Shown here: piece by piece, positions 2,062 to 48,505 of the stretch
Position numbering within the stretch: position 1 is the first letter of the stretch
How the letters are laid out: each line of letters opens with the position of its first letter
Source: a virus
Taxonomy: Duplodnaviria; Caudoviricetes
Reading direction: 5' to 3' (one strand)
DNA: 64,000 nt
Virus record (IMG/VR): IMGVR_UViG_3300014208_000024
Location: 160,001 to 224,000 of that record
Notes under the pieces: generated by a model
Told to the model about the DNA's origin: nothing
The model's input: the letters and a program-made list of their open reading frames with translations, nothing else
Database searches by the model: none
Program-made: the position numbers and the translations under genes

Positions 2062-3558
2062 TTAAAGTATAAGTTCATATTTAAATTTTCCACAATCCCA
2101 AATTCTATCATATTTTAACATTTGCATCATTTCCCATTCTGTTTTTTTTTCGTCATAAATTTCTGGAAATTTCTTTTTTAATGATGATTTTCCAAAAGAG
2201 AATTTGTGAAATCTTTTAAATCTACTAACTTTAGAATTATAATATGTATAGTCAGGTTTAAGAATTTGTGTTAATATAAATCCCGTCTTTGTATATAAAT
2301 TATTTTCTTTATTTAATGTCCATCTTCTATCGGCAAAACTTATTATTTTATTGGGATTATAATTTTTTATAAAAAATTTTAATATCTTACCAAAAATTCC
2401 AGGAACATTATAATTAAAATTTACACAGAATCTTTTAAGCTCAAACAAATCATTGTTTTTATTTTTTCCGTTCATTTGTCTTATATTGTCAAACGTCATT
2501 ACTGCAATTAATTCATTATTAAAAAAAGCACCTAATTTTATATTTGATTTATCTTCTCCTTGAATATGATATTTATTTAAAAAGATATCTTTTTCAATAG
2601 AATTTAATTCTTTTATTTGGCAACTTCTTGCATGAATATTTTTAAGATTTGATTTTTGAAATATATGTTTTAATTTATTTTTTACTATTTCATTTTTTAG
2701 TTCCCATTCATCTTCTGTAATGTGTATAAGAAAATAACCTTTTTTATTCATTAAATTTGTTTTATTTAAATGAAAATTTTTTAATTTACCTCCATAATTT
2801 TCGGTATGATATAAGTTTCCATTAAATTCTATTCCTATTTTATTTGTATGATTTATTATATCTATTTCTACACCACTTAAAAATTTTCTATTATTATTAT
2901 CAAAATCTATATTTAAAGAAGTTAAAAATTGTTTAAGTGAAATTTCAGGTTTTGATATATATGAATTTTTTATTTTTGTAGTGGCATTTTTTAAATTTTT
3001 TGAGGTTCTTTTTATAAATGATTGAGAATGATAAACTTCATTTGGATACATTTCTTTATATTTTTCTAAGTCTATTTTGTGTTTTTTTAAGTGTGTATTT
3101 GTTAATGTTTTTAATTTTTTATCACATATTTTACAAATAACATAATTATCTTTATTAGATAACATCTTTTCTTTATTTTTTTTGTTATCAACAAATGTTT
3201 TAAAAAGAAATTTTTCTTCTGGAAATTTTTTTAAATATTGTTCTGTATCTAAATTGTGATGTTTTAATAAATGTATTGTATATTGTCCTGAATTGTTGTT
3301 AATATCTTTGGTTTCCCAATTACAAAACTTACACTTTTTTAACTCTATTTCCTTTTCAATTTTTTTAATATCAAAATATTGTTCATGCCAAAATTTACCA
3401 GTATCTATTTTATATTTTCTTTTTATAAAATTAGATGGATGAATTAAATCTGGGTATATTTTTTTTATATGTTCTGTTAATACACCAGATGAATTTTTAT
3501 AGTCTTTAAAAACTTTTTTTGTTTTTTTACATGTTGCAACTATATATTCTTTTTTCAT
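2062..3558 (-). mobile_element. Free-standing homing endonuclease (Zn-finger repeats + PD-(D/E)xK domain + GNAT-like C-terminus; Hef-like architecture)
   Basis: C2H2-like fingers CKFCNW..HLLKHH and CKICDK..THLKKH. Nuclease motif EIDIINHTNKIGIEFNGNLYH. C-terminus ELKRFC...FADRRW...RIWDCGKFKY. Lys-rich, more AT-rich than its neighbours, and inserted between the capsid and neck genes. Confidence 0.75.
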
Positions 3559-3692: not shown

Positions 3693-5375
3693 TTAGTAAG
3701 TATTGATGTTGTCAATGTAGATAACACCGTAGAACCTGTTGTTAACCATTTTCTTAGCGTAACGGGTCATGATACCTTTACGAGGTGTGAAGTCGTTAGG
3801 ATCAGTGATAGTTTGTGTTAATTGCAATGGAATATAAGGTGCATAGATGTAACCTGCTTCAAGGAAGGTGTTACCTTTATGTCCTAAGATTACCAAAGAT
3901 GCTGGTAAATAAGGATCTTTGTATACTACGTAACGTGAACCTAAGTTTCCAATTTTCTCAACTCCCAAGTTGTATTTTTCAGATTCTGGAGAAGCTGAAG
4001 TATCTACGTGGAAATATTCGAGATCATCAAAAATTGCTCCTGCTTCAGCAGAACAAACTACCCAGTTTGCACCACCACGAAGAGTTGCTTTGTGGATTTG
4101 TGCAGAAAGTTCGTTAATTCTAGTGATAAGAGTTTGATTCCAGTCTTTCTGTGTTCCAAAGAAGTTAGCGTTATTAGCTAAACCTTGGTAATCCCAACGA
4201 GCACGGAAAGGAGCTTGGTTTGCAATGTCAATAATAATTTCCCTGTCAATTTCAGCAGCAACGTGCTCTGATAACAAAGCTGTTAATTCAGCTTCAGCAT
4301 CAATTGAGTGGTATGCTTCTAAGTCTTGAGCTAATTCAGGAGTCCAATGTGCACGTAATTTACGTGTAATTGTGTTAACAGTTACAGATGAAAATCTCAA
4401 TGTGATTTCAGACATTTCTGACTTACCTTCAAGATCATTGTAAATTTCAAAAGCAGCATTAAAAGGAACTGCAAAAACAGAACCAAATGAACCAGCACCG
4501 TTATTTAACATATCTGTGTTAAAATCTGTACCAATTACTGAAGCTGGTCTTAAGTCAAACACTATATTTGCTAAACCGCTATCAAATTGATCAAGACCCC
4601 ATTGTTGCATTTGTGAGAAATAAGGAATACTTCCACCGTTAGCAACAATAAGAATGTTTTGTGAACCTGCACTGTAATAAATTGCTGTTTGAGCAGAAAA
4701 TCTTACAGTTGCGCTTGATTGTTGTTTGGAAATGTTAAAATCGTTTCCTAACCATGTAGTAACAGCTTTTAAACCATTAGCAAAATTACTTCCGCTTAAT
4801 ACTGTAGCAGGAGTATTTGAACTATTTGTATAAGCATGTGTTACTGTTTCACCAGTACCAAATGATAAGTCAAAACCACGGTTATTATAGAATCTTTCGT
4901 AAGCTGTTGTGCTTGCAAAATTAGGACCTGCATTTCCATTAGCTGTATTTGCAGGAGCTACGATACTTCTTTTACCGTTTGCAGTTTGCCATGCAGTTTC
5001 GTGAGAAATACCAGTTTGTTGTGTACTGTCTGTACCAGCAAAAGATACTCTTGCATCCATGTAGAATAAAAGACCTGAAGGCAATGCTAAAGGTTGTACA
5101 GATACGATTTCATTAGCTAAAAGACGAGAAAAAACTCTACGTACAATTGGAAAAGCTACTGTATCAAATCTACCTGCTGATGCATCCAATGTTACTTCAT
5201 TTAACATGTGGTGTGCTTGGTTTTCTAAAAGTTGTGCAATGTTAGTTTTCTTCATACCTTGAAGGTTTTCTAGAAGACCAGATTCACTCCAGTTTCTAAC
5301 GATTGCTTTTCTTTGTTCGGCGAGGTCTTTGAAAACTGTGAGACCTACTTTACCGCTGTTTAATAATTCACCCAT
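3693..5375 (-). CDS. gp23: Major capsid protein, T4 gp23-like (HK97 fold)
   Basis: gp23-family motifs: FPIVRRVF..LLANEIVSVQPL..PSGLLFY, TRKLRAHWTPELAQDLEAYHSIDAEAELTALLSEHVAAEIDREII, and YIYAPYIPLQ...DFTPRKGIMTRY. Confidence 0.95.
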   Translation of the reverse strand: MGELLNSGKVGLTVFKDLAEQRKAIVRNWSESGLLENLQGMKKTNIAQLLENQAHHMLNEVTLDASAGRFDTVAFPIVRRVFSRLLANEIVSVQPLALPSGLLFYMDARVSFAGTDSTQQTGISHETAWQTANGKRSIVAPANTANGNAGPNFASTTAYERFYNNRGFDLSFGTGETVTHAYTNSSNTPATVLSGSNFANGLKAVTTWLGNDFNISKQQSSATVRFSAQTAIYYSAGSQNILIVANGGSIPYFSQMQQWGLDQFDSGLANIVFDLRPASVIGTDFNTDMLNNGAGSFGSVFAVPFNAAFEIYNDLEGKSEMSEITLRFSSVTVNTITRKLRAHWTPELAQDLEAYHSIDAEAELTALLSEHVAAEIDREIIIDIANQAPFRARWDYQGLANNANFFGTQKDWNQTLITRINELSAQIHKATLRGGANWVVCSAEAGAIFDDLEYFHVDTSASPESEKYNLGVEKIGNLGSRYVVYKDPYLPASLVILGHKGNTFLEAGYIYAPYIPLQLTQTITDPNDFTPRKGIMTRYAKKMVNNRFYGVIYIDNINTY

Positions 5376-5439: not shown

Positions 5440-6804
5440 TTAGATATAGTCTTCATTTTTTTCGATTCCTGCTAAAACTTTTCTGCGTTTCATTTCAGCG
5501 CTTTCATATACTACTTCTTTTGCTTTCACTGTATTAGTGATAGTAGCTTTGATTTTTGAAGAATTGTCTTTAACAACAACTATTTTGTTTTCTTCCAAAA
5601 TTTTATTGTAAAGTTTTTTTTCTTCTTCTACAGTTTGAGTTTTATCAAACTCTTCTGCAATTCTAGCTTTGTCTGTTGTAGATAATCCACCGCTTGCAAA
5701 AATTTTATTAGCATAAGCTAATTTTGCATTGAAAGTTTGCATTTCGTCGAATTGTTTTCTTAAATCTTTAAAAGATTCCTGATAGTTTTTTATAACTTCA
5801 CTGAATTCTTTATTAGATTCGTTTAAACGTTTGTTTTCCTTTAATAGCTCGTCTATTTTAGACTCATTTTGAGCTTTTTTATTTTCATTAACAGGCATCG
5901 AAGATGTCTGTCTACTTCTATTTTTTACTGCGATTTCAGGACCAACACTTGTTCCTGTTGTTTTTTGTACTGAATTAGATTGTCCCATCATTTTAACTTC
6001 ATCTAATTCTTCTTCAGCTGTAGGTAAATCTATTTTTGGAAGTGATTTTTTCCAATCTGGTTTTTCACTTGTTATATCTGATAAAGCTAATTCTTTTGCT
6101 TCAGGATCATCATCTATTGTGAAATATTCTTCATCTTCTGGAATATCAAATTCCATCATATTTTCACCCATATTATTAATTTCTTCTAAAGAAAATTCTA
6201 ACAATTCATCCTCTTGAACTGGAGCTGGAGCAGGAGCAGGAGCTGGTGCTGGAACTTCTGTTGGAACTTCACTCGCTGGATTTGCTGCTGTTTCATCATC
6301 TATATAATCTACATCTACTCCTTGTTCACTTCCAGATTCTCCACCACTTACTTTTTTATCAATAATTTTATCAATAAGTTGTGCAAGTTCTAAAACATCA
6401 TTATCAACAGGATTAGTTTCTTCTGGAGCTGGAGCTGTTGAGTCACCCATTGGAGTTGCTTCTGGTGATTGTGGTTGGTCTTGTTCGATTGTTATCATTT
6501 CATCTATGTTTTTTTCAATTTCAATTTCTTCATCATCATCAAAATGACTTTCATCATTTTCTTCATTATCGTGTGTTGTCATATCTTCAACTTCTACTTC
6601 ACCATCATTTGTTAATTCAACAACTTTTTCATCTTTAGCTACAGTTATATTATTTTCATCATCAATTTCAATAGATAAAGATTCTTTTAAAATTTTTTCA
6701 ATCTTATCATTAATTTCGTTTTCAAATTCTTTTTTTGCAGCTTCAGTCGCAAATTTTTTAATTTCTTGATAATTAACTTTTGCTTCTTCTAATGATGTTT
6801 TCAT
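5440..6804 (-). CDS. Prohead scaffolding/core protein (gp22-like by position)
   Basis: Acidic, coiled-coil-rich protein between the protease and capsid genes. C-terminal segment N+KL.YANK+F...GL....K..I.E.FD...T.EE.K.LY..I is typical of T4-like scaffolds. Contains an APAPAPAPAP linker. Confidence 0.7.
   Translation of the reverse strand: MKTSLEEAKVNYQEIKKFATEAAKKEFENEINDKIEKILKESLSIEIDDENNITVAKDEKVVELTNDGEVEVEDMTTHDNEENDESHFDDDEEIEIEKNIDEMITIEQDQPQSPEATPMGDSTAPAPEETNPVDNDVLELAQLIDKIIDKKVSGGESGSEQGVDVDYIDDETAANPASEVPTEVPAPAPAPAPAPVQEDELLEFSLEEINNMGENMMEFDIPEDEEYFTIDDDPEAKELALSDITSEKPDWKKSLPKIDLPTAEEELDEVKMMGQSNSVQKTTGTSVGPEIAVKNRSRQTSSMPVNENKKAQNESKIDELLKENKRLNESNKEFSEVIKNYQESFKDLRKQFDEMQTFNAKLAYANKIFASGGLSTTDKARIAEEFDKTQTVEEEKKLYNKILEENKIVVVKDNSSKIKATITNTVKAKEVVYESAEMKRRKVLAGIEKNEDYI
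6220..6253 (-). repeat. 6-bp coding microrepeat (Ala-Pro)n
   Basis: ggagct/ggagca units encode PAPAPAPAPAP in the scaffold protein. Confidence 0.8.
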
Positions 6805-6864: not shown

Positions 6865-7605
6865 CTATATTTTTTTCCAAAATTCGTTATTAGATAATTT
6901 ATAAAGTTTTTCATATCCCTCACACATGCAATTTTCAGGTGTAATTATTTTTGGTGTTTCAGGAACAATTATTTTTGATTCATCAATCATATCTGTCATT
7001 CTACAAACACCATTTTGACATATCCATTTAATTTTTTTATACTGTTGTTCAGTAATTGGAGTCATCCCCCAATTTCTTCCTTCTTTAAATAAATATGCAC
7101 CAGGAGTTGATGGAGATGAAACAAAATCAAATGCAATTAATTCAAAATCATTTTGTACTATATCTTCGCCTTTTACAGTTTTTACAGAACCAACTCCTCT
7201 AGAAGAAATTCCAAGCATTACATTACTTTTCATTAATCCTCTTAATCTTCTTGCATCATCGCAATCTGGATCTAAAATTTCAACTTTACCATATAGTTCT
7301 TCACCTTGCCACCACATATCAATTACTTTGTGAGAAGATTGTCTTAAACTTACAACAGCACTATCGGGATGATCTAATTCTCCTAATGCTCTACCTTCTT
7401 CAACTGCTTCCATATATTTTGTTGCTTCTCTTCTAAGAATATCATATGGATAAACTCTACCATTTCTATTAAGCGTATTAGCTTTTTGTAAAATTCCACT
7501 TAATACTATTGGTTCATCTTTTTGTATTGCTTCTTTTATGAGTTTAACATTTGGTTTAAACTTATAAAATTCTCTAATAATATAATATTTACTATCTTGT
7601 TCCAT
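6865..7605 (-). CDS. gp21: Prohead core protease, T4 gp21-like
   Basis: Motifs GILQKA...NRNGRVYP, ALGELDHPD (catalytic His), GISSRGVGS (catalytic Ser) and FDFVSSPSTPGA. Confidence 0.92.
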   Translation of the reverse strand: MEQDSKYYIIREFYKFKPNVKLIKEAIQKDEPIVLSGILQKANTLNRNGRVYPYDILRREATKYMEAVEEGRALGELDHPDSAVVSLRQSSHKVIDMWWQGEELYGKVEILDPDCDDARRLRGLMKSNVMLGISSRGVGSVKTVKGEDIVQNDFELIAFDFVSSPSTPGAYLFKEGRNWGMTPITEQQYKKIKWICQNGVCRMTDMIDESKIIVPETPKIITPENCMCEGYEKLYKLSNNEFWKKI

Positions 7606-13671: not shown

Positions 13672-14106
13672 CTAATTGTTTAAATATTTTATTTCTCCAG
13701 TGGAAATATTTAAAATAAAACGAAATGTTTTTAATGTATCATTTTCATTATAATAAACCCATCCAAACAAATTGTTACTTAAGACAGTTGGTAAATCGCT
13801 AATTGTATTATAGGCATTTAATTTTTCATTATCACGAAATTGTTCAACTCTTCCACTTTTTCCTGAAAATTCTAATTTAACTTTTATTAAATCAATAAAA
13901 TTTAAATTTTTTATTATTTGACATTTTAATTCTTCAATTGATACTATTTCCCATGCTTTTTTTAAAATTATTCTATGAATAGCATGAGCTATTTCTTTAC
14001 ATATACTATCTAAAGAAGGAATGTGAGTCCATTCTAATTCAGTTAATTTTTCTCCAGAAATTTCAAATTCTAAATCTACTGGACAATCAAGTAAATTATT
14101 TTGCAT
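13672..14106 (-). CDS. Hypothetical protein
   Basis: 144-aa ORF overlapping the upstream gene end (coupled). No motif recognised. Confidence 0.6.
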   Translation of the reverse strand: MQNNLLDCPVDLEFEISGEKLTELEWTHIPSLDSICKEIAHAIHRIILKKAWEIVSIEELKCQIIKNLNFIDLIKVKLEFSGKSGRVEQFRDNEKLNAYNTISDLPTVLSNNLFGWVYYNENDTLKTFRFILNISTGEIKYLNN

Positions 14107-43144: not shown

Positions 43145-43176
43145 TTTGCATTATTGAATTTTTTTTTATATATTTG
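43145..43176 (+). promoter_or_regulatory. Bacteroidota-type sigma70 promoter
   Basis: TTTG (43145-43148), 20 nt, TATATTTG (43169-43176). Confidence 0.7.
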
Positions 43177-43197
43177 CAAAAAAACAAAACAAAGACT

Positions 43198-44769
43198 ATG
43201 AAATTCAAAAACCTAAAACAGACAGATATTGATTATGCACGTAGAATCTACAAAGATAAATCAATGACTTTTCAACAGAGAATGAATATTTTAACAGATT
43301 ATTTCGAAAAAGATGAACGAACAATTCGCAGATGGTTTTCAAAAAAATTAGAAGGTTTTAAAGAAAAAGAAGATATAGTTGTAGAAAGCGAACATTTTAA
43401 ATTAGCAAAATTAGCACAAATTGATAAAGGGAGAAAATATTATTTAATTTCATCTGCTCAAAACAACACCCTTCCAAATGCAGAATTTATAAAAAACATA
43501 GAGGCATATAGTAATTTTTTAAAAGGACAATTAATTCTCGTTCCATATAGATACAAAAATCCAACATCAATATTTTCAAAAGCAGATAAAGAAAGTGAGT
43601 TTTGGCATCCGAGTCTTGTTAAATATTTGAACGCAAACAGAATAGATTTAAATTCAAAGTTAACTGTTCTTGGAGACATTAAAATTCAGCCTACAAATTC
43701 TGATCCATTGCGAGGAATTCAAGGTATAAGCTCTAAAAAAAGTTGTATTTTGGCACATCCATCAATACATTTTAAAACTATGCATGTTTTAGAAGGATAT
43801 GATAAAAAATTCATGATGACAACTGGCTCTGTAACAAAAGAAAACTATACTGACACTCTATTAGGAAAAAAAGGATCATTTAATCACACATATTCGTTTG
43901 TAATTGTAGAAATTGTTAATGAAGATAAATTTTATTGTAGACAAGTTACGGCAAATTCATCTGGATCTTTTACAGACCTTCATTTTAAAGTTTCTAATGG
44001 AGAAGTGAAAAAAATAAATAGTTGTGGTGCTGTTGTGTTTGGAGACATTCATTCGGGTGACCACAACAAAAAAGTTGTAGACTGTGGTATGGAATTGTGT
44101 AAAAAAATAAACCCCGAACACATTGTTCTTCACGATTTGTTTAATGCTAAATCCATAAATCATCACGAATTTAACAATCCTTTTATTCAATATGAATTGG
44201 AAAAAGAAAATAAAAATTCTTTGAAAAAAGAAATAGACGAGATGCTAAATTGGCTTGAACAATTAAATAAATTTAATGTTGTTGTTGTAAAAAGCAATCA
44301 TGATGATTTTGTATCAACATGGTTAATGCAAGATTGGCGCAAAATGAGCACCTGTAAAAATTCAATAGAATATGTAAAATTTGCATCAATATTATTAGAA
44401 GGAAAAGCAAAAAACGGAATTATTCCTTACTTAATAAATGAAAAATTTCCTAAAATCAAATGTTTAACGGCAAATGATAGTTTTATTGTTAATTCTTGGG
44501 AGCTTGCGCAACACAGTTCTGTTGGAAGTTCGGGAACAAGAGGGTCTTTAAATTCTTATAGTTCTTTAAGTATAAAATGTGTATTGGGACACGGGCATAC
44601 GGCCACTAGAAAAATGGGTACTATAATGGTTGGAACATTTACCAATTTACGTGTTGGATATAATAATGGCCCTAGCAACTGGGTAAACTCTTTAGTAATC
44701 ATTCACAATGACAAAAAAGCACAATTAATTATAATGGACGAGGATGGAAAATTTACTACTTTGAAATAA
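43198..44769 (+). CDS. HTH + calcineurin-like metallophosphoesterase, T5 A1-like (start revised to ATG 43198)
   Basis: N-terminal HTH (FEKDERTIRRW), ISSAQNNT, PYRYKNPTS, FGDIHSG, LHDLF, SNHDD and GHGHT. The A1 assignment is from recall of this family. Confidence 0.7.
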   Translation: MKFKNLKQTDIDYARRIYKDKSMTFQQRMNILTDYFEKDERTIRRWFSKKLEGFKEKEDIVVESEHFKLAKLAQIDKGRKYYLISSAQNNTLPNAEFIKNIEAYSNFLKGQLILVPYRYKNPTSIFSKADKESEFWHPSLVKYLNANRIDLNSKLTVLGDIKIQPTNSDPLRGIQGISSKKSCILAHPSIHFKTMHVLEGYDKKFMMTTGSVTKENYTDTLLGKKGSFNHTYSFVIVEIVNEDKFYCRQVTANSSGSFTDLHFKVSNGEVKKINSCGAVVFGDIHSGDHNKKVVDCGMELCKKINPEHIVLHDLFNAKSINHHEFNNPFIQYELEKENKNSLKKEIDEMLNWLEQLNKFNVVVVKSNHDDFVSTWLMQDWRKMSTCKNSIEYVKFASILLEGKAKNGIIPYLINEKFPKIKCLTANDSFIVNSWELAQHSSVGSSGTRGSLNSYSSLSIKCVLGHGHTATRKMGTIMVGTFTNLRVGYNNGPSNWVNSLVIIHNDKKAQLIIMDEDGKFTTLK

Positions 44770-45838
44770 TATTAGCCTTTAACAACATTTCTTCTATATT
44801 TTCATTATATTTTATAACTACAAGTAAAATTTTGTTGTTTTTACAATATTCCATTTTTATTTTATCTCTTTTTTGCTGAGATTTAAACATTTTTTCTCCA
44901 CCAAACCATTCAATGGGTTCATAGTGTTGTATTCCATGAAATTCTATGCAAATTTTTTTGTCTAACAAATAAAAATCAAAAGGAAGTGTATATTTATCAT
45001 AACAATCGATAAATCTTTTTTGCTGTTTAAAACAAATACCAAATTTAAGCAACATGAATTTAATTTGTGTTTCTCCAGTAGGTTCTTTACAAATTGGACA
45101 CCCTTTTCTTCGAAGGTGATTGTTTGGAGTCTGTAAAAATAAACCATGTTTATTACAAACTATACTTACTTTAATGTTGTCCCCTTTGTATTCTACAAAA
45201 TCATAATTATATTTATTGCCATGAATTTTTTCAAATTGCTTTATTAAAAAATCTGTTTTATTAACAGCATTGTGTTTAGTACATTTTACATGATAATTAT
45301 AAGGTAATATAAGGTGTTCTGTGTTATAATCTTTATTTATAATAGTTATTTTTGTATTGGCATTAATATAATTTATTTTTGAATAATCATATTTATCTCC
45401 ATGAATATTTTTAAATCTTTTAATTATATCATTATTTGAGTAATTAAAGTGTCTTCCATTACATTTTGGACATCCACTACCAAACATGTGACTTCCTGGC
45501 GTTTGTTTAAAATCTCCATGAAGTTTACATGTAATGATTATTTTTGTTTTTTCATCTTTATAAGTTACTTTTGAATAATCATATTTTTCTCCGTGCTTTT
45601 TAACAAATCTTTTTATTAAAACATCTAATGGGATTTTAAATTTATCAAATGCACATTTTTTACATATGCATCCATTTATGTGATCATGCGCTATTTGTAA
45701 AAATTCTCCATGTGTTGGACACACTATTTTTACTTTTGTGTGATTATTTATATATTCAACTAAACCATAATCATATTTATCTCCATGTACAAATTTAGCT
45801 TTTTCTACAAATTCTTGTGTTGTTAATTTTTTAGGCAT
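44756..45838 (-). mobile_element. Free-standing homing endonuclease with HGxKYDY repeats and a C-terminal PD-(D/E)xK domain (start revised to ATG 45838)
   Basis: Four repeats of the HGDKYDYS.V.Y.....K+.I.C..HG.F.Q type, CPKC/CPIC zinc knuckles and LPFDFYL..KKICIEFHGIQHY. Confidence 0.8.
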
Positions 45839-45839
45839 A

Positions 45840-45995
45840 TCATTTATTTTTAACCTGATTAAAATGTTCAATTAACAACCATTCAATAAACTTAGACTTA
45901 TTTTTTATTTCCTCTAAATGAATATATAATTCATTAGGTATTCTTACAGCAATTGTCTGTTTCTGCTTTTCTAAATTTATTTTTCTTCTTCCCAT
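45840..45995 (-). CDS. Ribbon-helix-helix protein 1 (51 aa; missed by the ORF track)
   Basis: My translation: MGRRKINLEKQKQTIAVRIPNELYIHLEEIKNKSKFIEWLLIEHFNQVKNK. It has an alternating beta ribbon TIAVRIP and a helix-SK.I-helix. The stop TGA is 1 nt before the endonuclease ATG, and a TCTATTTATA motif lies at 46019-46028. Confidence 0.75.
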   Translation of the reverse strand: MGRRKINLEKQKQTIAVRIPNELYIHLEEIKNKSKFIEWLLIEHFNQVKNK

Positions 45996-46061
45996 AATAA
46001 ATAATTTTTAGTGTTTATTATAAATAGAAGAAAAAAATAAAAACAGAACAGGTCGTGTAAA

Positions 46062-46196
46062 TTATTTTTTGTTTTTTTCTATATATTCTTTTAACAATCG
46101 TATTATCAACTTACTACGATTATAATCGCCATCATCTAATTTTTTTATAATTTCTGGAGGAAGCGTTATGCTTAATTTTATTGATTTGTCTTTCAT
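46062..46196 (-). CDS. Ribbon-helix-helix protein 2, CopG/Arc/MetJ-like (44 aa; missed by the ORF track)
   Basis: My translation: MKDKSIKLSITLPPEIIKKLDDGDYNRSKLIIRLLKEYIEKNKK. It shows the classic xSITLPxE...LD...NRSxLI..LL..Y pattern. Confidence 0.8.
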   Translation of the reverse strand: MKDKSIKLSITLPPEIIKKLDDGDYNRSKLIIRLLKEYIEKNKK

Positions 46197-46211: not shown

Positions 46212-46242
46212 TAAATATAATCAAAAAAATTATAAATACAAA
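46212..46242 (-). promoter_or_regulatory. Overlapping host-type and late-type promoter motifs for RHH2
   Basis: On the minus strand, TTTG-N19-TATATTTA with a TATTTATA motif (46231-46238) inside the spacer. Confidence 0.5.
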
Positions 46243-46254
46243 AAATTTTTTTTT

Positions 46255-46288
46255 AAAAAAAACCTTTACTATTGTAGAGGCTTTTTTT
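46255..46288. terminator. Terminator-like hairpin in a divergent intergenic region
   Basis: A-run, CCTTTAC-tatt-GTAGAGG (one G:U pair), T-run. Confidence 0.45.
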
Positions 46289-46314
46289 ATATTATGTGCA
46301 TAAAATAAAAAAAA

Positions 46315-46752
46315 ATGTACTTAAAAAATGAAATAAATTGGTACGATTCTGGGCTGATAGATGGAATACATTCAGACAAAATGAAAGATAAAGTTATAAG
46401 GTCTTTTAATGTAGCCAGGGAATTAATACTTGAAAATAATTCTAACAAAAAACTTCCACAATTAAGGGAGTGTGTGAATGTAGTTGTCTTCCCAATAATA
46501 CGAAGATGTTTATATGTAAACGACTCAGAACTCAGTTGTATTAAAGATGAGGAATTTGAATTTGATAGAGAAAAAATGAATTCTTTTTTATGGATGATAA
46601 GTGATCTTTCTGATATATATTTAATAGAGAAGCATTTTAGAACTTTAGATGCTCAGGCGGAAATATGCTCTCATCTGTGTACATTGTATGTTGCTGAGCA
46701 AAACAACACATTTAGAACTCAACAAAGATTAATTAAGAAACAAATAAACTAA
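46315..46752 (+). CDS. Stand-alone paralog of the major capsid protein N-terminal segment (145 aa)
   Basis: WYDSGLIDGI...FNVARELILE...VVVFPIIRRCL aligns with the capsid protein's WSESGLLENL...LENQAHHMLNE...TVAFPIVRRVF at similar spacing. Confidence 0.65.
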   Translation: MYLKNEINWYDSGLIDGIHSDKMKDKVIRSFNVARELILENNSNKKLPQLRECVNVVVFPIIRRCLYVNDSELSCIKDEEFEFDREKMNSFLWMISDLSDIYLIEKHFRTLDAQAEICSHLCTLYVAEQNNTFRTQQRLIKKQIN

Positions 46753-46757
46753 CTAAC

Positions 46758-47522
46758 ATGAAAAAATTAGGAATTTCAATTGATGGTGTTATCAGAAACT
46801 ATCTTGATGCTTTTGACAAGCAATATCGAAAACATTTCATTCACAACGAAAGCATTGTAGAAATGAATGAAGAATTTCAATACAAAGAACCAACGGAACA
46901 AGATTTTGAAGAAAAGACAAAACAAATAGAAGCAAGAATAAAAGAATTAATATCATTGCCTGTTGATTCTCCAGATTTGTTAAATCATTATCAATTTAAA
47001 GAAATAAAAGAATTCGAAACTGAAAACGCATTTAAGCCAGAGGAAGAAAATGTTATTTTTGAAAATTTTAAATCATTTGAGAACAAAATTTTAACACCCC
47101 AAGAAGCTTTAAATCAATTTATGTATGAAAAACATCCATTTAGAATCTTTGGAGATTCAGAAGAATATCAAAATGCAATGAGTCATTTTAACAGAATTCA
47201 GGCTTATGGATTACAAAAAGGGTTATTTGAAACTGTTTTAATTACTGATTTAAAAGCATCTGCAATATCTGCAAACTATTTCTTTCTACACAGAACTGGA
47301 TGTAGAGCAAGAAATGTACAAATAGCAAAAGATGATGCCGACAAATGGAATTATTGTGATATTTTGGTGGATGCATCTCCATTGGCAATTCAAGCAAAAC
47401 CAGAAGGAAAAACATCAATTAAAATTGATAGATTATACAATCAATATGATGAGGCCGATTATACACTTAAACATTTAAAAGATTTAAACAACGAAATGTT
47501 ACTAAAAAAATTATTTGAATAA
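46758..47522 (+). CDS. HAD-fold 5'(3')-nucleotidase-like protein with a degenerate motif I
   Basis: KLGISIDGVIRN (canonical G+DIDGV) and C-terminal K...WNYCDILVDASP. Confidence 0.65.
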   Translation: MKKLGISIDGVIRNYLDAFDKQYRKHFIHNESIVEMNEEFQYKEPTEQDFEEKTKQIEARIKELISLPVDSPDLLNHYQFKEIKEFETENAFKPEEENVIFENFKSFENKILTPQEALNQFMYEKHPFRIFGDSEEYQNAMSHFNRIQAYGLQKGLFETVLITDLKASAISANYFFLHRTGCRARNVQIAKDDADKWNYCDILVDASPLAIQAKPEGKTSIKIDRLYNQYDEADYTLKHLKDLNNEMLLKKLFE

Positions 47523-47527
47523 AAATT

Positions 47528-48505
47528 ATGAAAAAGAAAATTAAAAATTCTGTAAAAACAGAAATGAAAAACATGGTTCAAAAAGAATTGTCAAGAATCA
47601 TGGCAAAACAAATCTCAAACGAAGACTTTTTTAAAGAAATGGTACAAGAAGTTATAAGTGACTTTTATGAAGTAGAAAAAGAAGAGATAAAAGAAAAAAC
47701 AAGTTATGATTCAATTAAAGAGTTTGGAAGAGATAAGGCTAGTGTTATTAATGATATTATGGAAGGAAAATATAGAGAAGATTTTTCTAAAATAATAAAC
47801 AAAGATATTAATAAAAACAAAACCGAAGTTTGCTTTGATCCAATTTCTCAGTTAAAAACAAGAGTTTCAAACTCTAAGATTGAATTAACTCCAGAACAAA
47901 TGAATGTTTTATTTGGAAAAAGAAAAGAAAATTCAGAACCTGAAATAGAAAATAAATTACTTTTTTCGCAACCAAACCCACATAATCTTAACATTTTAAA
48001 AAACATAAATGGAGAACAAGCAATTCAAGATTATGAAAGGATTCAATACACAAAAGAGGTTATAAAAGATTTGTTTGATTATATTGAAAAAAACAAATCT
48101 CACTTGAAAGCTATACATGAACAAATGCATATAAACAATAAATCTGTTGAAATATATAAAATTCAAAACGAAGCTGAAAAAGATTTGATAAATGATTTTA
48201 GAATATATAAAACTTTTTCCACAAGAATAAATCCAGAATATTTTTCTTTTGAAGTAGAAATTAAAACAAGTGAAATAACAAAACAGAAAATTATTGCTTT
48301 AAAAAACGTAGTAATGAAAAGTGTTGATATTTCTGATGGAGTTATTGGAGCAGAAGATGCAGAAAAATTGTTAGAAATAGCTCAGGACATTTATTCTAAC
48401 ACTACAATTAAACCGCTTTCTCAAACAGAACCAATTACAAAAGAAGAAATTCTTGTAACAAAAAAATTAAAAAATAAAAAAAAACAAATAAAAGTAAAAA
48501 AATAA
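47528..48505 (+). CDS. Hypothetical protein (helical, K/E-rich)
   Basis: 325-aa ORF. No motif recognised. Confidence 0.65.
   Translation: MKKKIKNSVKTEMKNMVQKELSRIMAKQISNEDFFKEMVQEVISDFYEVEKEEIKEKTSYDSIKEFGRDKASVINDIMEGKYREDFSKIINKDINKNKTEVCFDPISQLKTRVSNSKIELTPEQMNVLFGKRKENSEPEIENKLLFSQPNPHNLNILKNINGEQAIQDYERIQYTKEVIKDLFDYIEKNKSHLKAIHEQMHINNKSVEIYKIQNEAEKDLINDFRIYKTFSTRINPEYFSFEVEIKTSEITKQKIIALKNVVMKSVDISDGVIGAEDAEKLLEIAQDIYSNTTIKPLSQTEPITKEEILVTKKLKNKKKQIKVKK

Follow-up and report, generated by a model that had tools for sequence, protein, structure and literature searches.

The window (bases 160001-224000 of the 372,283-bp record of an uncultured T4-related phage; GC ~27%) is a stretch of 64,000 nucleotides, and the sequence occurs, at the DNA level, in two groundwater metagenome studies, one of them possibly the source sample; no RNA data set was listed as containing it. 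Its plus strand carries a 145-residue open reading frame, ORF145, which a preliminary description made from the letters alone had proposed to be a free-standing copy of the N-terminus of the major capsid protein (MCP); the position, strand and length of the frame are exactly as given there. The features of the locus are as follows.

44756..46196, minus strand: insert upstream of ORF145, comprising an HNH-type endonuclease and two small RHH-like ORFs
44756-45871, minus strand: HNH-type homing endonuclease (phrog_559, 5e-77)
45840-45995 and 46062-46196, minus strand: two tiny RHH/CopG-like ORFs (weak Pfam matches, E 0.015-0.05)
46263..46290, plus strand: terminator-like hairpin with T-run and A-run flank, possibly bidirectional, conserved before the L005 and L006 orthologs
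46265..46293, plus strand: sigma-70-like promoter candidate, TTTACT-N17-TATATT, 21 nt before the ATG and overlapping the hairpin
46315..46752, plus strand: ORF145 (P0001), 145 aa, member of the mini-MCP family (ORF and family homologues)
46321..46512, plus strand: ORF145 residues 3-66, judged homologous to MCP residues 23-82 by hhalign and hmmsearch, with W-x-x-SGL, helix 21-43 and the FPIIRR helix 54-66
46645..46701, plus strand: ORF145 residues 111-129 (LDAQAEICSHLCTLYVAEQ), start of the long C-terminal helix, resembling the start of the MCP spine helix (second hhalign match)
46758..48505, plus strand: two genes (254 and 325 aa) after ORF145, with 5-nt gaps; slot conserved in relatives

ORF145 and the 254- and 325-aa genes are probably co-transcribed. 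The late-type TATTTATA motifs at 46019-46026 and 46231-46238 drive the small RHH-like ORFs leftward. In none of the relatives examined was the HNH/RHH insert found ahead of the family gene: L009 and L010 have another minus-strand gene, of 401 aa, at this place, and since L006 has only a 98-nt spacer, the block looks like a mobile insertion. Further upstream lies a 531-aa gene (window 43174-44769, plus strand) that matches the phrog_1745 'DNA transfer protein' at 4.5e-126, with a weak signal for a metallophosphoesterase. Its identity to the L006 ortholog is 47%, while most genes downstream of ORF145 are 79-88% identical and the 325-aa gene (g325) 54%; it is a second fast-evolving gene adjoining ORF145.

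Gene order around ORF145 follows a conserved slot, in which a glycosyltransferase island precedes a PhoH-type or phrog_1745-type gene, the family gene and a 200-260-aa protein; the slot continues with unknowns and glycosyltransferases, and then with a trio of 124-130, 479 and 140-149 aa. More distant family members have a SNF2 helicase and DNA polymerase B as neighbors, or follow a block of glycosyltransferase genes. No family member examined lies in the head module, and the neighbors are glycosyltransferase, PhoH, helicase or polymerase genes.

The MCP gene lies on the opposite strand at a distance of 40.9 kb, in agreement with the previous estimate of about 41 kb. The head module and the parts of the MCP that concern us here are the following.

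3693..5375, minus strand: MCP gene, gp23 type, 560 aa (Pfam PF07068, 3e-73), with the late motif CTATTTATAG 48 nt upstream
5121..5321, minus strand: MCP codons 19-85, the region judged homologous to ORF145 (hhalign, HMM), comprising the predicted propeptide up to L-N-E60 and the start of the N-arm at FPIVRR
4248..4304, minus strand: MCP codons 358-376, start of the spine helix (IDAEAELTALLSEHVAAEI; T4 gp23 alignment, hhalign)
5440..6804, minus strand: putative scaffold (gp22-like) gene, 454 aa, acidic, pI 4.3, assigned by position
6865..7605, minus strand: prohead protease, T4 gp21/Peptidase_S77 type (phrog_207, 4e-48; orthologs with PF03420)

The scaffold assignment follows from the placement of the gene between the S77 protease and the MCP, an order conserved in L025-L028. 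No gp24-like full-length paralog of the MCP was found in the genome. Beside the MCP gene is a 498-aa gene (window 2062-3558, minus strand) with weak matches to ROS/MucR zinc fingers and restriction endonucleases, probably another mobile nuclease; a similar gene of 491 aa follows the MCP in L027 and is absent from that position in L025, L026 and L028.

HMMER aligns MCP residues 73-108 (VAFPIVRRVFSRLLANEIVSVQPL...) to residues 94-129 of T4 gp23 (AVMGMVRRAIPNLIAFDICGVQPM...). Just before this segment, all five MCPs examined from this branch carry a (L/I)-x-x-E or L-x-E motif (MLNE, LISE, IVSE, LLKE and LFNE), and the T4 prohead protease has the specificity L/I-x-E (PMC9026906). The presence of a cleavage-type motif in front of the aligned segment therefore identifies the region shared with ORF145 as the predicted propeptide and the start of the N-arm. 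In T4, the cleaved propeptide and the N-arm of gp23 face the scaffold core of the prohead (PMC9546572, PMC9958956). The first ordered gp23 residue in the unexpanded T4 head is L106; the part that precedes it lies inside the shell, where it probably touches the scaffold core, and head-length mutations map to it (PMC9546572). The alignment and the T4 literature thus both agree with the earlier assignment of this part of gp23 to the cleaved propeptide and N-arm.

All three motifs through which ORF145 had been likened to the MCP are present in both proteins (ORF145/MCP: WYDSGLIDGI/WSESGLLENL, ARELILE/HHMLNE and VVFPIIRR/VAFPIVRR), and the W-to-F spacing is similar, as claimed, at 50 residues in ORF145 and 46 in the MCP. 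The pairwise similarity taken alone appears marginal, with a BLASTP E-value of 3e-4 as a single comparison and of 0.05-0.09 when all 1592 ORFs of the genome serve as the search space. A profile comparison of the gp23 N-region with ORF145, proposed in the preliminary description, gave far better statistics and clean controls. Using hhalign, the family alignment matched 24 MCPs with a probability of 96.5% and an E-value of 8e-10 over 60-76 columns, pairing ORF145 residues 3-66 with MCP residues 23-82. The reversed-profile control had an E-value of 0.64, and 20 column-shuffled profiles gave 0.23 or worse, with scores of at most 15.5 compared to 69 for the real profile. Searching the 1592 genome ORFs with the family profile (hmmsearch) retrieved the MCP at an E-value of 2.6e-8 over residues 19-84 (domain E 1.5e-7). 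The comparisons indicate that the first ~66 residues of ORF145 are homologous to MCP residues ~19-85.

The family profile also matches the MCP N-termini of Microcystis phage Mel-JY01 (1e-5) and Flavobacterium phage immuto (7e-4) and, among huge uncultured phages, those of LR756508 (6e-3) and LR756511 (6e-2). It found nothing in the T4 genome, gp23 included; the signal is therefore specific to this branch of gp23-type capsids. Against the PDB sequences it retrieved neither gp23 nor gp24, the best E-value being 0.12 for unrelated proteins. Neither Pfam nor PHROGs returned anything meaningful for ORF145 and all 17 aligned family members, and Pfam Gp23 was absent from all 17 at E-values up to 10. 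The family libraries are blind to ORF145 because the PF07068 model begins only at approximately MCP residue 69, leaving the shared region outside it.

A second, colinear hhalign match places the C-terminal helix of ORF145 on the start of the MCP spine helix (19 columns, P 0.003-0.007), aligning LDAQAEICSH(L) at ORF145 residues 111-129 with IDAEAELTAL(L) at MCP residues 358-376. Its score is 25, versus at most 15.5 in 21 control profiles, and the motif of the C-terminal helix is the most conserved one among the paralogs. The match is suggestive of an origin of the last ORF145 helix from the start of the spine helix. The remainder of the protein had been described as unrelated to the MCP; because of this colinear match the statement is only partly right.

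The marginal genome-wide E-value (0.05-0.09) of the pairwise comparison would be compatible with a chance resemblance, or with ORF145 being a functionless, decaying relic of a partial MCP duplication. The profile statistics and their controls argue against both, as do the intact ORFs of conserved length in many phages, the conserved synteny and the confidently predicted fold, and we regard chance or relic status as excluded for practical purposes. ORF145 derives from the N-terminal, inward-facing portion of the MCP of the same phage and is conserved, though it evolves fast.

AlphaFold2 modeling with the family alignment produced a compact five-helix structure (helices 21-43, 54-66, 85-98, 101-107 and 113-144) with a pLDDT of 91.5 and a pTM of 0.85, in which the W-SGL motif sits in an ordered, non-helical N-terminal segment; the protein is predicted to form a stable helical domain of 16 kDa. 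With 145 residues and an all-helical model, ORF145 has no HK97 body (E-loop, P-domain sheet, A-domain); together with the missing Pfam Gp23 match this bears out the reported absence of the HK97 core. It is well supported that ORF145 keeps the propeptide/N-arm domain of the MCP and has lost the E-loop, insertion domain, P-sheet and A-domain; it probably also keeps the start of the spine helix. In the ESM Atlas, the model that matches ORF145 best belongs to a Gp23-family protein (TM 0.65, 127 residues aligned). Foldseek searches of the PDB and BFVD with the ORF145 model returned nothing at an E-value of 0.001 or better, the best BFVD row being an uncharacterized 166-aa myovirus protein (TM 0.49). 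VIA-align, run against 48,161 chains, gave a best Z-score of 6.3 (TBC domain, IE1), which lies inside the tool's stated noise for helical bundles. An ESM Atlas feature search with ORF145 returned unnamed clusters only, and the Atlas's own model of ORF145 is poor. To our knowledge, the gp23 propeptide is disordered or absent in every solved T4 head structure; since it is missing from all solved heads, the lack of a clear match among solved structures is expected.

The relationship to the gp23 propeptide and N-arm extends to W-x-x-(S/T)GLL, the helix that follows, and FP-I-(I/V)-RR (MGMVRR in T4), in the same order and with similar spacing, and in the closest family members to an L/I-x-E at the predicted cleavage position of the MCP. 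ORF145 differs in being a free-standing protein of 145 aa in which additional helices close the bundle and no HK97 body follows. Known duplicated capsid genes encode full-length vertex or decoration paralogs. The T4 vertex protein gp24 is, like ORF145, a duplicate of the MCP gene kept as a separate gene; however, gp24 retains the whole HK97 fold and is part of the shell, whereas ORF145, which retains the helical N-domain and perhaps the spine helix, is unable to build a capsomer. The family, conserved and present in several copies, reduces a T4-type MCP to its scaffold-facing N-domain and is a variation on the known theme of capsid-gene paralogs.

ORF145 belongs to a family of 130-160-aa proteins of huge uncultured phages. 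An exhaustive search of 1.8e9 representative proteins yielded 19 homologues of 106-160 aa, with E-values down to 1.5e-31. A word-based homologue search recovered only ORF145 itself when started from the single protein, and three further distant members when started from the alignment; tblastn of ORF145 against 50,697 phage records gave no match. Alignments revealed the family motifs W-x-x-x-G-L, FP-x-I-R-R, F-E-F-x-x-E-K-M, I-D-x-E-A-E and Y-V-x-x-Q-N. The W-x-x-SGL and FPIIRR-type motifs are among the best conserved columns, and conservation spans the whole domain. The preliminary description had staked its claim on the motifs being kept in the homologues, and they are. The C-terminal RLIKKQIN of ORF145 does not end in Glu, and other family members do not conserve it.

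ORF145 is indeed a separate ORF, but it is not a lone copy, being one of three, perhaps four, paralogs in the genome. In genome coordinates (G000:C1), the additional members are as follows.

73409-73783, minus strand: paralog, 124 aa (BLASTP against the MCP N-terminus, E 4e-4; family HMM, 1e-11)
311014-311430, plus strand: paralog, 138 aa (BLASTP against ORF145, E 2e-4; family HMM, 3e-4)
98327-98731: possible fourth, marginal member (family HMM, 0.03)

The 124-aa paralog matches the MCP N-terminus better than ORF145 does (BLASTP, 1592 ORFs). ORF145 and the two clear paralogs share W-x-[ED]-SGLL, FP-x-[IL]-[RY]-R and a C-terminal [IT]-D-[AI]-E-A-E...C..YV. The 144-aa ORF at window 13672-14106 was considered as a further mini-MCP and rejected, being unlike both the family and the MCP (hhalign E 0.17-0.27). 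The marginal member is situated between a UvrD-type helicase and, directly upstream, a sigma-70-family factor with regions 1.2, 2, 3 and 4 (G000:C1:98736-99575, minus strand), in an operon with a late-type motif. By eye, a tRNA-like sequence can be made out at approximately G000:C1:74170-74250 (minus strand), immediately ahead of the small operon to which the 124-aa paralog belongs.

Using the family profile, small family ORFs were also found in LR756508 and LR756511. The distribution, another point on which the earlier proposal could be checked, is that of a family of huge relatives (372-595 kb), and the profile did not detect it in cultured relatives of 160-190 kb. As far as our searches of Pfam, PHROG, solved structures and the literature show, a stand-alone family derived from the gp23 N-domain is undescribed.

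ORF145 evolves much faster than its neighbors. It is 35% identical to its L006 ortholog, with flanking genes at 79-88%, and 48% identical to its L005 ortholog, with flanking genes at 86%. Across the orthologs of its clade the identity is 25-49%, whereas the clade MCPs are 75-89% identical and their residues 1-111, which include the shared region, are almost invariant. An L/I-x-E motif at the position aligned with the predicted MCP cleavage site is found in approximately one quarter of the family members.

Promoter classes were derived from strand-biased upstream words. The late-type class, (A/C)TATTTATA in sense orientation, occurs 84 times, mostly 10-30 nt before start codons with a sharp peak at 20-29 nt, and TATTTATA is found ahead of the MCP gene, the protease gene and the majority of the large structural genes. 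No positional peak is seen for its reverse complement, TATAAATA; the late-type motif of this phage is the reverse complement of T4's TATAAATA. An early-type class, TCCCACTTTT-N-AATTTGCTTTATATA, stands before 28 small genes at 317-350 kb of the genome (G000:C1:317000-350000). Upstream of ORF145 we found neither TATTTATA nor the TCCCACTTTT...AATTTGCTTTATATA class, as had been noted for the late motif on this strand, and the two TATAAATA words on the plus strand there are the late motifs of the leftward small genes. Located 41 kb from the head module and lacking TATTTATA, ORF145 is no late head-cluster gene. A sigma-70-like pattern, TT[GT]AC[AT]-N16-18-TAxxxT, is present 14-41 nt ahead of the start codon, both in the window and in L005, L006, L007 and L009, and these four orthologous loci have at least three unrelated upstream sequences. 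The pattern precedes only 7 of the 464 genes of this genome, which is an indication and not a test because the pattern was chosen post hoc. At the three closest loci the site overlaps the hairpin and T-run that end the preceding operon.

What became of the capsid-mimic proposal can be divided between origin and function. With respect to origin and shape it is upheld by the significant homology, the missing HK97 β-core and the missing late-type promoter. With respect to function, our first choice, held at a probability of roughly 0.35, is that ORF145 acts in head assembly as a soluble mimic of the scaffold-facing N-domain of the MCP. According to this proposal, a host-type promoter would drive ORF145 before the late genes are expressed, and the protein, by mimicking the inner face of the MCP, would occupy one of the partners to which the N-domain binds. 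The gp22-like scaffold is the likeliest of these, with unassembled MCP and the gp21-like protease as alternatives. In this way ORF145 would assist or adjust assembly of the head of a very large capsid, in a role comparable to that of the small prohead-core proteins of T4 or of a free-standing HK97-type delta domain. Mimicry of the inner face is proposed because the homologous T4 region points inward and probably touches the scaffold core before the protease removes it.

The preliminary description had suggested a co-fold of ORF145 with assembly partners. ORF145 (17-row alignment) was co-folded with the full scaffold protein (5-row alignment) alongside three controls, which produced an ipSAE of 0.36 (0.41, 0.36 and 0.31 in individual runs) versus 0.00 for the best control, a result that the tool rates as 'weak support', a level at which passes are wrong more often than they are right, save for guesses that were already likely. 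The contacts agreed to at least 92%, the partner had a pLDDT of 82 or more, and no interface was reported. The assembly role is our first choice because of this co-fold, the T4 precedent for the region and the restriction of the family to huge relatives. Maintenance in a fixed syntenic slot, with three to four paralogs per genome, also indicates that the family is functional, and the T4 precedent includes the length mutations in the core-facing part of gp23 before L106 (PMC9546572). On the other hand, ORF145 has no late-type motif, unlike the MCP, the protease and ~80 other genes, and a conserved sigma-70-like promoter precedes the orthologs instead. Neither the gene nor the relatives examined ever lie in the head module. 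Fast divergence is odd for a protein that would share a partner with the almost invariant MCP residues 1-111, the L/I-x-E motif is retained by few members, and the complex score is weak. Should the assembly role be correct, the family would provide a handle on nucleation and size control in very large capsids, and a soluble substitute, able to fold, for the propeptide region of gp23.

A role toward the host would fit several features of the gene about as well. A non-late promoter, non-structural neighbors, fast evolution and paralogy form the classic signature of host-interaction genes. Because ORF145 bears this signature, we keep as possible, though rather doubtful, the reading that it is a decoy or blocker: an early mimic of the MCP N-region that would bind a host sensor or factor without activating it and so shield the late MCP from abortive infection. 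The host-type promoter, an evolutionary rate well above that of the neighbors, the several paralogs per genome, the consistently non-structural surroundings and the accessory distribution, with detection in huge phages and not in smaller relatives, are all in keeping with this. A model may be sought by analogy in the Gol region of T4 gp23, which we take to be approximately residues 93-122. Gol is the most conserved part of gp23; it binds EF-Tu and triggers the Lit protease (PMC3014915). The FPIIRR of ORF145 aligns with the start of T4 gp23 94-129, and thus of the corresponding, most conserved segment of the MCP, but only ~10 residues of this Gol-equivalent segment are shared. Moreover, a mimic of a trigger could equally set off the sensor, our literature search gave no precedent for a decoy derived from a structural protein, and no defense system is known to sense this MCP, which comes from a groundwater metagenome. 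A decoy or host-factor role is nearly as likely as the assembly role and, if correct, would amount to a new counter-defense principle in which a phage copies its own conserved structural epitope.

Early expression of a mimic of an assembly-critical MCP region, which is probable here, could also serve to poison the capsids of competing phages in a dominant-negative fashion or to exclude superinfection. We consider this very improbable. ORF145 lacks every lattice-forming element (E-loop, P-sheet and A-domain), which makes the lattice poison the least likely of the three functions originally suggested. Within the clade the N-region of the MCP hardly differs, so that the phage's own assembly would be struck as well, and there is no sign of selectivity.

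Pieces of the MCP are also found in other contexts. P0020, a 389-aa protein encoded in the ORF145 slot of another phage on a 5-kb contig, combines a complete family domain, a second family domain that lacks the last helix and a module resembling the MCP A-domain; it is the single example of such a fusion. The module matches MCP residues 386-430 at an E-value of 6e-8 to 9e-8 and is closer still (2e-13) to the C-terminal half of a second fusion protein encoded in the genome studied here.

G000:C1:16446-17321 (L004:1345-2217), minus strand: fusion of a dCMP/cytidine deaminase with an MCP module, 291 aa (Pfam dCMP_cyt_deam_1, 8e-26)

The deaminase-fused module is 36% identical to MCP residues 394-501, which comprise A-domain helices and strands. 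P0020 and the deaminase fusion show that at least two pieces of the MCP serve these phages as modules, and the makeup of P0020 lends independent support to a colinear MCP origin of the family. In four other phages the A-domain module was found only in their MCPs, although two of them carry small family members.

The P0020 fusion suggests that proteins of the ORF145 type may pair with the A-domain-like module of the deaminase, in which case an exapted capsid block, a split mini-MCP, would tether or regulate enzymes of nucleotide metabolism. The logic is that of a Rosetta-stone fusion: the P0020 module is closest to the deaminase one (2e-13, versus 9e-8 for the MCP), the deaminase fusion is real as judged by the Pfam match and the identity to the MCP, and the neighbors of the family are metabolic or replication genes. 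We nevertheless think this unlikely, as there is one fusion, on a 5-kb contig, and in the four other phages the A-domain module was found only in the MCPs, although two of them have small family members. For the decoy reading, P0020 would add a second MCP piece, the A-domain, and so widen the mimicry.

A broader reading, which we put forward tentatively, is that huge T4-related phages have split their capsid gene into modules that act early as capsid mimics, either blinding host sensors of the invariant MCP N-region or tethering enzymes as split mini-capsomers. The modules may be the mini-MCP, consisting of the N-domain and spine helix and present in three to four copies, and the A-domain, carried on a dCMP deaminase or on a mini-MCP. 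If this is true, decoys or adaptors derived from structural proteins would form a class that is not described as far as our literature search shows. Either way, the mini-MCP family, P0020 and the deaminase/A-domain fusion demonstrate a modular reuse of MCP pieces in huge phages.

Returning to the assembly role that we favor, several known systems are instructive. The delta domain of HK97 gp5 and scaffolding proteins likewise show that an inward-facing, helical N-terminal region of an MCP does scaffold-type work, either fused or as a separate protein. However, a gp22-like scaffold is already encoded by this phage, and ORF145 is a globular protein, not an elongated coiled coil, whose gene is outside the head module; the likeness drawn here is one of idea. 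T4 gp67 and gp68 and the CTS-tagged proteins IPI-III and Alt are small proteins that have been proposed to join or influence the prohead core by virtue of an affinity for its components, as is suggested here for ORF145, which in contrast is neither late nor in the head cluster. No PHROG 'prohead core' family is among the matches of the 17 family members. The CTS-tagged internal proteins carry a short N-terminal L/I-x-E tag on variable cargo, whereas ORF145 has no such tag and consists of one conserved domain; its N-terminus, MYLKNEINW, is not shared with unrelated proteins. A resemblance of T4 gp67 to gp23, considered as possible support, is not stated in PMC9958956 or PMC9026906 and is not used here. 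The T4 genes alt.-1 and alt.-2 (NC_000866, 123065-123450; L014) are, according to their annotation, an old duplicate of the beginning of alt and are a small precedent for free-standing copies of the N-terminus of a head protein.
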